From: Candidatus Saccharimonadota bacterium
GTDB lineage: Bacteria; Patescibacteriota; Gracilibacteria; Absconditabacterales; Absconditicoccaceae
NCBI GenBank assembly: GCA_030429145.1
Contig: JAUIDC010000001.1
Span: 30,001-62,000, forward strand
Direction: 5' to 3'
DNA: 32,000 bases
Shown here: one piece after another, positions 1 to 32,000 of the stretch
How positions within the stretch are numbered: position 1 is the stretch's first letter
Layout of the letters: each line of letters opens with the position of its first letter
The notes under the pieces: model-generated
Database searches by the model: none
Seen by the model: only the letters and a program-made list of their open reading frames with translations
What the model was told of the DNA's origin: nothing
Position numbers and translations under genes: made by a program

Positions 1-397
1 CGGTGATCTTTGAAAGAGGTTTCTTGCGACCTCACTGACTTGTTCCCTCACGACTCTTCCCTCATGAACCGAGTGAAAATGCCTGGAAACCTCCTGAATC
101 GGTCAAGATCAGCTGGTCCCGATTTTCAAATCTGTGTAGTCCTCCTGCCTCCTTGATCAGCTCATCTCCGGGACGAAGATATAAGTGAAATGTATTTGCT
201 AAGATCAGGTTGATAGGCGGCAGCTTGCTGCCCATATAGTGAGGGTCACGAAGCATGTCGAGAACAATTCCCTTAACGGTAGCCTTGGTGCCCACTGGCA
301 TAAATATAGGCGTGGTAAGTTTGACACCATTGAGCTCTATTTCACCGACTCTTGCATTTCATCTTGTTTTTAAGACGCGAAATGATAACTTGGACAT
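1..397 (-). CDS. tgt: queuine tRNA-ribosyltransferase (tRNA-guanine transglycosylase), N-terminal part; continues past the window edge
   Basis: Track ORF 62..301 extended in frame across TGA at 359-361, 62-64 and 32-34. N-terminus [12 protein letters not shown][G][24 protein letters not shown], then [24 protein letters not shown], both match Tgt. ATG at 395-397. Confidence 0.85.
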
Positions 398-457
398 ATA
401 ACAACAATAAAGTAAATCTGTGAACGATTATAGTTTTTTGGCATCTGTTTTCCATAC

Positions 458-901
458 ATGCTTGAACAAATAAAAAAGTCCGTCGTAGCAAGATATAAGC
501 GAGATGATACAAAAGGTATTTTTTTATCGACTTTTGACAAAAAAGGCGAACTTTTAAACTCTCAAGGTGTGCTACATACCGATAAAAAGCTCGGGGATGT
601 CATAGAAAAACTCTATAAGTGATTTGCTGAGGATAATCTCAAAAAGATAGGATTGATCACTGTCGATATTGTGACTTCTCTTTTTGAGGAGACAAATATC
701 AGTAAAATACCATCAACTTCGGTAAAACAATACGGATTTTACGTGATTGATGCGAACAACAAATCCGGCGTGATACTTCCCAATACTAAATGAATCGCTG
801 ACGCGAAAAACGCACTCTTCGTGCTCAAACAAAAATATGGCATCAGCGGAAAGGTTAAAGTATTTCTTTTTACAACTGATAGAATTATTGTAACAACATA
901 A
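458..901 (+). CDS. hypothetical protein, 147 aa (weak AMMECR1-like C-terminal motif GVILPNTKGIADAKNAL)
   Basis: Open frame ATG 458 to TAA 899-901 with two in-frame TGA. Missing from the standard-code track because TGA splits it. Stop abuts the next ATG at 902. Confidence 0.55.
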
Positions 902-1489
902 ATGTATATAGGTAAAACTCTATGGAGGAAGCGCACATTTACACTGATTGAAATGCTTATTGTCATTGTGATAATAGGTGTTTTGGCAGCAGCGCTTGTT
1001 CCAAGGCTGAATTCAGTACAAGGAAGAGCAAGAGATACCAAAAGGAAAGCAGATCTCAGAAATATTGCTAATGGGTTGGAAATCTATCTATTGGACAATG
1101 GTACCTATCCTTCAGCCCAAAACACTCTTTGATCATGCTCCAACCCGCCAAATGGTTCAACATGCTATGTGTATAGCAACAATGCCTCTCTATGGATTTC
1201 TGGATTAAACACTATCCTTACGAGCATGCCTAAAGATCCTATAGAAAATGCTGCACAAAACAGCGTGTGAATATACGGCTCATGACCATGGGTAGACTGA
1301 TACTATATGTATGCGTATGGCAATGTTGCGAGGACAGCCGTGAACGGCAAAAATCATTTTGATCTCTACACACAGCTAGAAAATCGTAAAGACCCAGAGA
1401 GAAATGAACTACAACGTTATACATTTGGCTATACATATAATGCTCTCTATCCGACCTACTCACGACGAATGTATGCTATTAAACCATAA
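902..1489 (+). CDS. type IV pilin-like protein (prepilin-type N-terminal domain), paralog 1, 195 aa
   Basis: MYIGKTLWRKRT|FTLIEMLIVIVIIGVLAAALVPRL. Track ORFs 902..1132 and 1307..1489 share a frame and are joined through 4 TGA. C-terminal motifs MPKDPIEN and TQLENRKDPERN are shared with the other paralogs. Confidence 0.85.
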
Positions 1490-1501
1490 TCTATTATAAT
1501 A

Positions 1502-2074
1502 ATGCAAAAAAACATCGGATACAAAAAAACATTTACCCTCATCGAGATGCTCATTGTCATCGTCATTATTGGTATACTTGCAGCAGCACTTGTTCCAAGG
1601 CTAACAGCAGTGCAGGCAAGAGCGAGAGACAGCAAAAGGAAGGTTGATTTTAGAGCTATCTATAGTGCAAATGAGATCTACCTCATCGACAATGGTACCT
1701 ATGCACCAGTCAGTGGCTCATGTGCTATCAACACACTAGTATGATGTGTAGCACTCAGCTACAATAGTGCGCCATGGATCCCGACACTAACTGGATACCT
1801 AAACTCTATCCCTATTGACCCAGTCAATACCAATGGTGCACCTACCATCACAGGCAATTATTCATATATTTACTATAGAGTACTTGATACTCCTATCGAT
1901 ACCTACAGCCTTGTAACACAACTAGAAAATCAAAAAGACAATGACAGATGTGCGATACAGAACTATCAGTATACGGTCAGTTCTTGAGGAAGTACAGCCT
2001 CGCGATGTACACCTGCACTCGGTAATGCCTACACCTACGCTATAGCACCCAACATGGGCAATAGTAACTATTAA
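1502..2074 (+). CDS. type IV pilin-like protein, paralog 2, 190 aa
   Basis: MQKNIGYKKT|FTLIEMLIVIVIIGILAAALVPRL. Extended past TGA 1742-1744 and one further TGA to TAA 2072-2074. Motifs IPIDPVN and TQLENQKDNDRC. Confidence 0.85.
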
Positions 2075-2088
2075 CTCCTTATAACCAG

Positions 2089-2685
2089 ATGGGATATAGA
2101 AAAGCCACAGCTTTTACACTCATAGAGATGCTTATTGTGATAGTCATAATAGGTATTTTGGCAGCGGCTTTAGTCCCTAGGCTAAGAGATATACAAGAAA
2201 GAGGGAGAGATACAAAAAGAAAGGTTGATATCCGTCAAATCCGTAACGCTATAGCTATATATTATGCAGACAACTCTTCTCTTCCTCAATATAAACCTCA
2301 GACCTCTTGTGGATGATCACAATCGATCCTTGCTGTCAGTTCTGGCACATGTTGATGACAATGGTTGACCACTTCTACGTCTTTTTATACTATTATGTCT
2401 TCTGTCCCCGTCGATCCTGTCAATCAATGATATCCTCACGCAGTATATGGAGATAGCAACTATATATATACCTATCTCAACGGAACATGAAGTATATTTG
2501 TCACCCCAGATAGGGATTATCTGCTTGCCACTCAACTAGAAAACACCAAAGATCCCGATAGATGTGGTATAACACCTTACTATTACCTACACACGGCATC
2601 TGCAACATGAGGCCCTTGGTGTCCTCCACATTCTGGATATCTTGACACAAATAGAAGTCAAAGAATCTATGCTCCCAACTATTAA
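2089..2685 (+). CDS. type IV pilin-like protein, paralog 3, 198 aa
   Basis: MGYRKATA|FTLIEMLIVIVIIGILAAALVPRL. Six in-frame TGA, ends TAA 2683-2685. Motifs VPVDPVN and TQLENTKDPDRC. Confidence 0.85.
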
Positions 2686-2711
2686 TCTTTATATACTAGA
2701 GCTGTTTTACT

Positions 2712-2924
2712 ATGAGTACAGAAAAAGCAAAAGGTGCATTGTTTGGAACTCTGAGTGAGTTCTGGAAAGCAGGCACACAAGAGCTTAGTAAAAATATGTC
2801 ATCGGTGATGACAACGCCTTCGGCGAAGAACGCTCCCAAGAGTGGTAATTTTATCTCGCCAGAGTTAGAAAGACGGGAAAAAGATTTGATAGAAGAAAGA
2901 AAAAATACTATTATCAATGAATAA
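2712..2924 (+). CDS. hypothetical small protein, 70 aa
   Basis: Uninterrupted ORF ending in TAA, same strand as its neighbours. No recognisable domain. Confidence 0.4.
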   Translation: MSTEKAKGALFGTLSEFWKAGTQELSKNMSSVMTTPSAKNAPKSGNFISPELERREKDLIEERKNTIINE

Positions 2925-30615: not shown

Positions 30616-30643
30616 TTTGAAAATAATTATGTAAATAGACAAT

Positions 30644-30670
30644 AAAAAAGAGAGGATCGCTCCCCTCTTT
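30644..30670 (-). terminator. intrinsic terminator after the DUF1761 gene
   Basis: Minus-strand GAGGGGA-GCGA-UCCUCUC (one G.U pair), followed by TTTTTT. Confidence 0.6.
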
Positions 30671-30693
30671 CATGGACATGATGTTGTATTTTT

Positions 30694-31083
30694 TTAAAGA
30701 GAGATAAGCAATGCACCTGCAGCGAGTGCGCAGATAAGGCGGCAAATAGAGCTAATCCACATAACTGTATTGTTGCCATTAGCCCACATATTGTTGCTCC
30801 AAGTAGTGATAAGAGAGAAACCAAGCCAAAGCACACCAGCGGTCATGAGAGCGTCATTCATCTCAGTCACACCTGCTTTCATAAATATCCAGTAGAGAGC
30901 CCATACTGTGACAAGGTTGAAGATGAACTCGAGAACCATCATGAAGACCATGTTGTTCTTGTTGTTGTCACCGTGATGTCCTACTGCTTTCATATACATC
31001 TTACCAAAGAGCATAGGAGAGTACCAAAGCATTCCGATGATAAATGTAACCACCGCTGCTACAATTATTGCTGTATAGTTCAT
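30694..31083 (-). CDS. DUF1761-family membrane protein, 129 aa
   Basis: IIGMLWYSPMLFGKMYMK signature, four hydrophobic helices. Stop TAA. Confidence 0.65.
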   Translation of the reverse strand: MNYTAIIVAAVVTFIIGMLWYSPMLFGKMYMKAVGHHGDNNKNNMVFMMVLEFIFNLVTVWALYWIFMKAGVTEMNDALMTAGVLWLGFSLITTWSNNMWANGNNTVMWISSICRLICALAAGALLISL

Positions 31084-31303
31084 GAGATATGTTAGATAAA
31101 TAATAAAACATTTTTACTTTATCTACTGTGTCACATTTTCCCATTGTCTTTCTCCTTTATTACTGTTTGCTATATTTTATAGTAACCTTTGTACGTTCTG
31201 CAAGAGATTTTTTATCTCTGTCATTTATCGAAAAAATCTCCACTTTTGCAACTACTTCTTTGATTTCGTCAAATGTGTAAAGCATGAAAGTATGGTCTCT
31301 TAT

Positions 31304-31909
31304 TTACTGGCCTAAATCGCTTTTTACATATAATTCACCACAATTTATTCATCCATAGCACGTGTGCAAACATGAGGTATATCAACCGCCACAAGCTGTA
31401 TTCACCTGGCATCACCAAAATGTTCATCACGCATAATCAGTATACCAGTGATAGTCAGCGACTGCACATCTATCAGCATCTTTGGTATTTTCTAATCTAC
31501 TTATCAAACTAAATGTCAGCCCATTTTTGAAAACATTGTTGTACATGTACGTATATCATCATGTCACTACAACCATATTACTACCAGGAGCTACATTATT
31601 AACTGGATCTATTGGCAAGGAAGTCATGATGCCTGTTAGTTGAGGGAACCAGTTCGTTCCAGTTGCAGTATTGATGAGACAAGAACTATTGACAGAACAG
31701 CCCCCTGCTAAAGGATAAATACTCTGATCAGTCTTATAAATCTGTATTGCATTGTATAAAGAGGTCATATCCACTTTTCTTTTAGCATCTCTTGCTCTCT
31801 CTTGTACATCAGTGAGTCTTGGCACAAGGGCCGCCGCCAAAATACCGATAATCACAATGACTATCAGCATCTCTATCAACGTAAATGTTTTATTTTGTTT
31901 TATCACCAT
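31304..31909 (-). CDS. type IV pilin-like protein, paralog 5, 201 aa
   Basis: MVIKQNKT|FTLIEMLIVIVIIGILAAALVPRL. Track ORF 31559..31909 continues through 7 TGA (including two TGA-TGA doublets) to TAA 31304-31306. LPIDPVNN and SRLENTKDADRC. Confidence 0.8.
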
Positions 31910-31911
31910 AG

Positions 31912-31943
31912 AAAAAAGAGAGAAATAACTTCCTCTCTTTTTA
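31912..31943. terminator. hairpin with flanking A/T runs just upstream of pilin paralog 5 (terminator of the next gene to the right, or a 5' leader structure)
   Basis: AAAAAGAGAG - 10-nt loop - CTCTCTTTTT. Confidence 0.45.
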
Positions 31944-32000
31944 TTATTTTTTAGATGATTTGCAATTACATTTATGCTATGGTGTCTAATCGATACTATA

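Follow-up and report, generated by a model that had tools for sequence, protein, structure and literature searches.

Genes in a 32-kb stretch of contig JAUIDC010000001.1 (assembly GCA_030429145.1, positions 30,001 to 62,000), which we refer to in its whole length as the window, fall apart at UGA codons when they are translated with the standard code, raising the question of which genetic code this DNA uses. We consider it very likely that the window stems from the chromosome of an uncultured bacterium of the Absconditabacterales (SR1; Patescibacteria, candidate phyla radiation, CPR) in which UGA encodes glycine, CGA and CGG both encode tryptophan, and UAA and UAG are the sole stop codons. The three codon meanings rest on conserved alignment columns, on Pfam scores and on codon exchange with relatives. 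A first-pass annotation, made from the DNA letters and their open reading frames (ORFs), had assigned translation table 25. Its reading of UGA as glycine is borne out by all three lines of evidence and its restriction of stops to UAA and UAG stands, but the 41 CGA and CGG codons, arginine in that table, read as tryptophan here; the earlier interpretation is incomplete rather than wrong.

How far does the coding content depend on the reading of TGA? The window has 39% G+C, and model genes were built from ORFs with TAA and TAG stops only, a 2Fe-2S ferredoxin gene and rpsT being included on the strength of a public contig that matches a section of the window exactly. With 40 genes and 8992 codons, the resulting model covers 84% of the window. 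Its longest ORFs reach 638, 573, 474 and 463 codons, compared with a maximum of 302 codons when all three stops apply. This gain is specific to TGA, as freeing TAG instead leaves the longest ORF at 302 codons and freeing TAA brings it to 399. In-frame TGA codons are spread over 25 of the 40 genes, and a recount gives 90, in agreement with the 85-90 once counted by hand. Every merged coding sequence had also been said to end in TAA or TAG, and this holds for all 39 complete genes (TAA 29, TAG 10, TGA 0). The window genes further contain 30 in-frame CGA and 11 CGG codons. Under the code proposed here, TGA makes up 15% of glycine codons, and CGA and CGG together make up 34% of tryptophan codons; per 10,000 codons, CGA occurs 33 times, CGG 12 times and AGA, the main arginine codon, 204 times.

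The identity of the amino acid at TGA was examined in alignments in which TGA, and later also CGA and CGG, was masked as X, so that no guessed residue could bias them. Standard-code comparators are available for 24 TGA columns. Glycine is the consensus, or the residue of the comparator, in 16 of them, another residue in 8 and tryptophan in none, in agreement with the earlier statement that tryptophan does not fit these columns. The first-pass annotation had quoted coordinates for eleven TGA codons within conserved motifs; at all eleven, the plus strand reads TCA, corresponding to an in-frame TGA of a minus-strand gene inside the motif named. The genes given with coordinates in this and the following codon comparisons all lie on the minus strand. 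For example, both TGA columns of Tag, 3-methyladenine DNA glycosylase I (30046-30615; TGA at 30487-30489 and codon 84), are glycine in the solved E. coli and Salmonella enzymes, and TGA 359-361 of Tgt, whose N-terminal part runs off the window (2-397), meets glycine at the T-R-[x]-N-A-R column of Z. mobilis TGT. In the S41 C-terminal processing protease (16956-18257), two of three TGA columns are glycine in B. subtilis CtpB, and TGA 17409-17411 is the final glycine of L-R-G-N-G-G-G.

Larger sets of homologues give the same picture. Codon 148 of a YgjP-like metallopeptidase (4581-5231), a TGA at 4788-4790 within the motif K-W-G-S/T-C, is glycine in 94 of 94 distant homologues. In a DipZ-like CcdA-thioredoxin fusion (26224-27939), the TGA codons 11 (27907-27909), 299 and 513 are glycine in 110, 92 and 72 of 117 homologues, respectively. 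The TypA/BipA GTPase (24283-26103) carries four in-frame TGA codons; against 36 standard-code genes, codon 275 (25279-25281) is glycine in 36/36 and codon 500 (24604-24606) in 32/34, and the remaining two columns are variable. A C-5 cytosine DNA methyltransferase (6463-7422) has nine, including 7198-7200, 7060-7062 and 6523-6525. Compared with M.HhaI, glycine occupies four of its seven aligned TGA columns (codons 52, 57, 280 and 300), with alanine, asparagine and aspartate at the others. The TGA codons had been described as sitting on family-invariant glycines; glycine is favoured at them by Pfam, with 33.7 bits over the nine TGA codons of the methyltransferase, but motifs IV and VI of that enzyme are not invariant, M.HhaI having alanine and asparagine there.

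Pfam scores point the same way across the window. Reading TGA as glycine rather than tryptophan gains about 72 bits when the top family of each of nine proteins is counted, and about 93 bits once additional domains that do not overlap are included. The methyltransferase falls from 323.6 to 289.9 bits when tryptophan is used, and smaller losses are seen for Tag (9.3 bits), YgjP (8.5), S41 (7.5), PDZ (6.3), the C-terminal domain of DipZ (6.2), CtpB_N (5.9), Thioredoxin (5.7) and BipA_C (5.0). An ApbA/PanE-like Rossmann oxidoreductase (13191-14216), with eight in-frame TGA codons, three of them within G-F-[G]-D-L-[G]-K-[G] (the first two at 14118-14120 and 14109-14111), matches ApbA at 26.3 bits with glycine and loses the match with tryptophan. 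Moreover, when the masked window proteins were aligned to related loci and the subject codons read off, 233 codon pairs were obtained for window TGA in 44 TGA-carrying relatives; the partner is GGN in 139 of these and TGA in 23.

Do the remaining codons keep their standard meanings? Five positions written as arginine in the translations, which we take to be tryptophan in other bacteria, all turn out to be encoded by CGA or CGG. At 12 comparable CGA/CGG columns, the consensus is tryptophan in seven, an aromatic or hydrophobic residue in two, variable in two and lysine/arginine in one. The CGA at codon 147 of the YgjP-like gene (4791-4793), adjacent to the TGA described above, is tryptophan in 92 of 94 distant homologues. 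Similarly, tryptophan is found in 93 of 116 homologues at codon 177 (CGA, 29486-29488) of the Na+/Ca2+ antiporter g35 (29093-30016), and among 117 DipZ homologues in 106 at codon 392 (CGG, 26764-26766) and in 95 at codon 483 (CGA, 26491-26493). Individual comparators agree: Tag codon 21 (CGA 30553-30555) is tryptophan in three enzymes, in the motif H-D-x-E-W-G-V-P; codon 386 of the S41 protease (CGA 17100-17102) is tryptophan in B. subtilis CtpB; and Tgt codon 93 (CGG 119-121) corresponds to the tryptophan of G-W-D in Z. mobilis TGT. An arginine column had been suspected at CGA 29363-29365, codon 218 of the antiporter, and was dropped, the 116 homologues being mostly aromatic at this site (tyrosine in 47).

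With CGA and CGG as tryptophan rather than arginine, Pfam scores rise by a net of about 36 bits, the gains being 13.7 bits for YgjP, 8.7 for the C-terminal domain of DipZ, 8.6 for Tag, 6.0 for TGT and 4.2 for S41. Two proteins allow both reassignments to be compared directly. YgjP scores 187.1 bits with TGA as glycine and CGA as tryptophan, 173.4 bits with glycine and arginine, and 178.6 bits with tryptophan at both codons; Tag scores 268.8 bits with glycine and tryptophan, 260.2 bits when CGA is arginine, and 259.5 bits when TGA is tryptophan.

Codon exchange with the two closest relatives (L040 and L048) provides further evidence. Window CGA and CGG codons are paired there with CGA or CGG in 15 cases, with TGG in 12 and with other codons in three, and never with one of the remaining four arginine codons. 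Conversely, window AGA, AGG, CGT and CGC form 253 pairs, none of them with CGA or CGG, and the 58 pairs formed by window TGG include 34 with TGG and 18 with CGA or CGG. In standard-code outgroups, CGA and CGG make up 17-22% of the partners of window arginine codons, as expected of synonymous codons. Because CGA and CGG exchange with TGG and never with arginine codons, they are TGG synonyms within the clade. For CGG alone, TGG is found in relatives at codon 93 of g01, codon 82 of g26, codon 279 of g28 and codon 392 of g32.

All 64 codons were also assessed together by Codetta-like column log-odds on genes g08, g31, g32 and g35, using distant or outgroup homologues only. The standard meaning was recovered for all codons but TGA, CGA and CGG, the 58 other sense codons scoring as standard. 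TGA is assigned to glycine with +19.9 bits over 10 columns, the runner-up being tryptophan at -11.5 bits. CGA is assigned to tryptophan with +23.6 bits over seven columns, with arginine at -10.5 bits, and CGG to tryptophan with +6.3 bits from one column.

From which lineage does this DNA come? The first-pass annotation had placed the contig in the SR1/Gracilibacteria clade, and similarity of TypA now narrows this to the Absconditabacterales. A TypA scan over one genome per GTDB species yielded 80 loci, which were ranked by similarity rather than placed in a tree; 44 have in-frame TGA within TypA and 36 have none. The nearest loci, at 74-89% identity, are named after SR1 or the Absconditabacterales, or are wrongly labelled 'Peribacteria'. 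The best segment of L048 (OZ246420.1) reaches 89%, L040 86% and L003-L007 about 81%, followed by the oral taxon HOT-345 at 77% and RAAC1_SR1_1 at 66%. Loci labelled Gracilibacteria (BD1-5 in GTDB terms) lie at 59-65%, and Actinomycetota and others at about 45%. The gene order of the window is shared with L048 and L040 over many genes. From the TypA ranking and the in-frame TGA codons of the relatives it follows that the window belongs to the chromosome of a member of the Absconditabacterales. Two observations concern the labels of the loci themselves. Several metagenome-assembled genomes titled 'uncultured Candidatus Peribacteria bacterium' (L003, L006, L009, L024, L031, L048 and others) contain TGA codons within the TypA reading frame; as no other genomes are closer to the window, their label looks wrong. 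L073, titled Gracilibacteria, has a TypA gene without in-frame TGA.

Transfer RNA (tRNA) genes were considered as well. The window holds an array of 11 (14338-15809, minus strand), for Gly-UCC, Met, Val, Glu, Asp, Thr, Asn, Leu, Gln-CUG, Met and Gln-UUG. Inside it, between tRNA-Thr and tRNA-Asn, lies rpsT for ribosomal protein S20 (14936-15205, minus strand), and the 2Fe-2S ferredoxin gene (15884-16186) is directly upstream of the array. The tRNA-Gly(UCC) has A3:U70 instead of G3:C70. Public metagenomes were additionally scanned with a pattern describing a tRNA with a glycine-type acceptor stem and a UCA anticodon, which retrieved at least 120 stretches (L083-L202). Among the matches listed, 85 fold as tRNA(UCA) and about 80 of them form one conserved family, on contigs with 29-41% G+C. 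These contigs look UGA-recoded, since ORFs cover more of them, as of the window, once TGA counts as a sense codon. This highly conserved tRNA(UCA), GCGGATATGATGTAGTTGGTGTAGCATAGCAGACTTCAGCTCTG..., heads a conserved tRNA cluster with the anticodons UCA, then GUA/UGC, UCU, CUC and UAA.

Several results weigh against the reading of UGA as glycine and of CGA and CGG as tryptophan. In the thioredoxin-like protein g33, CGA 28175-28177 (minus strand; W-C-P-S-C-[CGA]-K-L) falls on a lysine/arginine column: relatives L012 and L040 have AAA there, five solved thioredoxins have lysine or arginine, and the Pfam score is 39.6 bits with tryptophan versus 42.9 bits with arginine (-3.3 bits). Tryptophan also costs 1.2 bits in Fur and 0.7 bits in the Na/Ca exchanger. 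A weaker case is the antiporter's CGA 29543-29545, which lies in a loop of positive charge and has AAG as its partner codon in L048. Support for CGG is thinner than that for CGA, consisting of the single log-odds column, Tgt and the TGG codons of relatives at four further sites. No tRNA with the anticodon UCA, UCG or CCG was found in the window or, by ARAGORN, in 82 related loci, and the metagenomic tRNA(UCA) family owes its glycine acceptor stem to the search pattern and sits on contigs that have no link to this genome. Finally, some comparators are clade proteins that had been translated at their source with table 4 or 25 (P0001, P0002 and P0004, for example); as mistranslated comparators place spurious tryptophan at TGA columns and spurious arginine at CGA/CGG columns, the resulting bias acts against our conclusion and not for it. 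The two lysine/arginine-like codons are what an ambiguous or transitional decoding would predict, in which CGA is mostly tryptophan and sometimes arginine because an arginine-accepting tRNA still reads it. Such codons, however, amount to just one or two of 41, close relatives lack any exchange with arginine codons, and both are accounted for equally well by a recent AGA-to-CGA change, a single mutation where the site tolerates it. We therefore regard ambiguous decoding as improbable; only experiment can exclude ambiguous translation (Shulgina & Eddy, PMC8629427). If true, it would represent a living intermediate of sense-to-sense codon reassignment.

Plain table 25, with UGA as glycine, CGA and CGG as arginine, and tryptophan columns arising by chance or through lineage-specific substitution, would account for the thioredoxin codon and for the slightly higher scores (0.7-1.2 bits) of Fur and the Na/Ca exchanger with arginine. 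It is nonetheless very hard to reconcile with CGA and CGG on seven near-invariant tryptophan columns, with 27 exchanges with TGG or CGA/CGG versus 0 with arginine codons in L040 and L048, with a log-odds difference of about 34 bits for tryptophan over arginine at CGA, and with the net Pfam gain of about 36 bits, and we give it little credence. Table 4, the code of Mycoplasmatales and of certain insect endosymbionts, with UGA as tryptophan, has one circumstance in its favour, namely that a public protein collection holds the YgjP gene translated in this way (P0001), with K-R-W for the family motif K-W-G. Against it stand the absence of a tryptophan consensus at any of the 24 TGA columns, the fall of nearly every Pfam score (most of all in the methyltransferase, Tag and YgjP, by 33.7, 9.3 and 8.5 bits), the log-odds of +19.9 bits for glycine versus -11.5 for tryptophan, and the GGN codons found in relatives at window TGA; its probability is accordingly minute. 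A standard code, with TGA as real stops of pseudogenes, as sequencing errors or as selenocysteine, draws on nothing beyond the presence of TGA inside ORFs and can be discounted almost completely. There are 90 in-frame TGA codons, yet no in-frame TAA or TAG over 40 genes, and the merged ORFs have family length (Tag 189 aa, TypA 606 aa, methyltransferase 319 aa). An independent Logan assembly from run ERR3428547 also speaks against it, with two contigs that match the window at 100% identity over 17 kb, at 14884-26089 and 26062-31862 (the latter being L002). For selenocysteine, 90 UGA codons would be spread over 25 ordinary genes and sit on glycine rather than cysteine or selenocysteine columns (no search for selenocysteine insertion sequence, SECIS, elements was made). 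The same TGA usage in relatives likewise speaks against a standard code.

How would UGA be decoded as glycine, and CGA and CGG as tryptophan? As the decoding tRNAs are absent from the window and the 82 loci, the machinery proposed for this genome is taken from the literature. Published work describes tRNA-Gly(UCA) and the absence of release factor 2 for UGA, tRNA(GCG) for CGU and CGC, and, in Absconditabacteria, tryptophan-type tRNA(UCG) and tRNA(CCG) for CGA and CGG (PMC8629427; PMC13092985; bioRxiv 10.64898/2026.05.24.727570). By extension from this clade, a dedicated tRNA-Gly bearing a UCA anticodon would read UGA in a cell lacking release factor 2, tRNA(UCG) and tRNA(CCG) with the tryptophan identity elements G73 and no A20 would read CGA and CGG, and real arginine would be encoded by AGA, AGG, CGU and CGC.

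Two loci in the window were considered as possible exceptions to stop-codon usage. The convergent genes g13 (8293-8802, plus strand) and g14 (8687-9235, minus strand) overlap by 116 bp (8687-8802). The tail of g14 is rich in TGA, and UGA as a stop was considered here; the 30 codons that follow its first TGA keep a coding score, and only the last 30 or so, with three TGA codons, two of them adjacent, score as non-coding. This tail may reflect read-on after an earlier stop was lost, or an error of the gene model. Readthrough after g17, where a small in-frame ORF lies past the TAA, was rejected, since there is no codon periodicity upstream of the ORF's ATG and a putative terminator hairpin, an inverted repeat read by eye only, follows the stop.

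Other features of the window were noted alongside the codon analysis. The methyltransferase is part of a restriction-modification pair (5297-7422, minus strand) that combines an M.HhaI-like C-5 cytosine methyltransferase with an adjoining NgoFVII-like restriction endonuclease (5297-6448, minus strand; six in-frame TGA codons). Outside its target-recognition region, the methyltransferase is strongly similar to M.HhaI, and GCGC and GCSGC sites show no clear depletion in the window. A type IV pilin N-terminal methylation motif (F-T-L-I-E-M-L-I-V-I-V-I-I-G) is found in seven genes at 902-2685, 16312-16899, 18763-19947 and 31304-31909. The variable C-terminal parts of these pilin-like genes are TGA-rich, with up to seven TGA codons per gene and several TGA-TGA pairs.

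Additionally, three paralogous small ORFs on the plus strand (9943-10089, 11754-11873 and 13015-13146; 48, 39 and 43 aa) share the pattern ...R-Q-L-F-x-V-Y...Q-L-V-L-Y-G. They are preceded, within about 60 nt upstream, by a conserved leader, which would read F-E-Q-I-Y-K-S-I if translated and is without a canonical start codon. Variation among the three, counted by codon position, is periodic after the ATG (19/13/30) and not before it (10/9/10), and Pfam returned no family match for any of them. The 220 bp that separate g14 from g15 contain two divergent, near-perfect sigma-70 consensus promoters, at 9335-9362 (minus strand) and 9408-9435 (plus strand), with TTGACA-16-TATAAT and TTGACT-16-TATAAT, each with an extended -10 TG. 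A 573-bp stretch (11874-12446) is without a gene in the model; a minus-strand ORF within it (11952-12359; 135 codons, two TGA) looks protein-like, and its sole Pfam match, to Sigma70_r1_1, is at chance level (E = 0.037).

How does the code of the window compare with those already described? The use of UGA for glycine in SR1 and Gracilibacteria has reportedly been known since 2013, from work attributed to Campbell et al. and Rinke et al., and corresponds to NCBI table 25. The window shares with that table UGA as glycine and UAA and UAG as sole stops, and differs from it at CGA and CGG, which the table keeps as arginine, thereby mistranslating 41 of 8992 codons, or 34% of tryptophan positions. 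To our knowledge, no NCBI table encodes the three-codon combination. NCBI table 4 (Mycoplasma/Spiroplasma and some endosymbionts) has in common with the window that UGA is a sense codon in a small, low-G+C genome, presumably one lacking release factor 2; in the window, the amino acid is glycine and not tryptophan.

Since CGA and CGG depart in the window from the standard meanings that table 25 keeps, we assign the window to the three-codon Absconditabacteria code. In that code, described for Absconditabacteria (SR1) by Shulgina & Eddy (eLife 2021; PMC8629427), UGA is reassigned to glycine and CGA and CGG to tryptophan, the latter change being also reported in PMC13092985. The window shows each of these reassignments, together with the same taxon, a low G+C content, rare CGA and CGG, and AGA as the main arginine codon. 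CGG is used at 12 per 10,000 over all window codons, versus fewer than 7 per 10,000 for most species in PMC8629427, a figure that refers to aligned Pfam domains and is not strictly comparable; otherwise no difference from this code was found in the window. In Anaerococcus and the RFN20 Bacilli (Onthovivens), only CGG is reassigned to tryptophan and CGA stays arginine (PMC8629427), because tRNA(UCG) is missing. These lineages share with the window a CGN-to-tryptophan reassignment on a low-G+C background, whereas in the window both CGA and CGG have changed and UGA is recoded too.

Both reassignments are thus already known to the field, and the value of the present case is practical, for annotation. 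The first-pass annotation had warned that table-11 annotation of this contig would be badly fragmented, and the public table-11 gene call of the identical contig L002 does split these genes, with a Tag of 42 aa, an antiporter of 144 aa and DipZ in two pieces of 272 and 193 aa. A public table-4 translation of the YgjP gene (P0001, equal to window 4581-5231) has K-R-W in place of K-W-G. Table 25, in turn, would write arginine at 41 tryptophan positions, some of them conserved residues in motifs of Tag, Tgt and the S41 protease. A code with three changed codons is needed for calling genes, searching for homologues and predicting structures in this clade.

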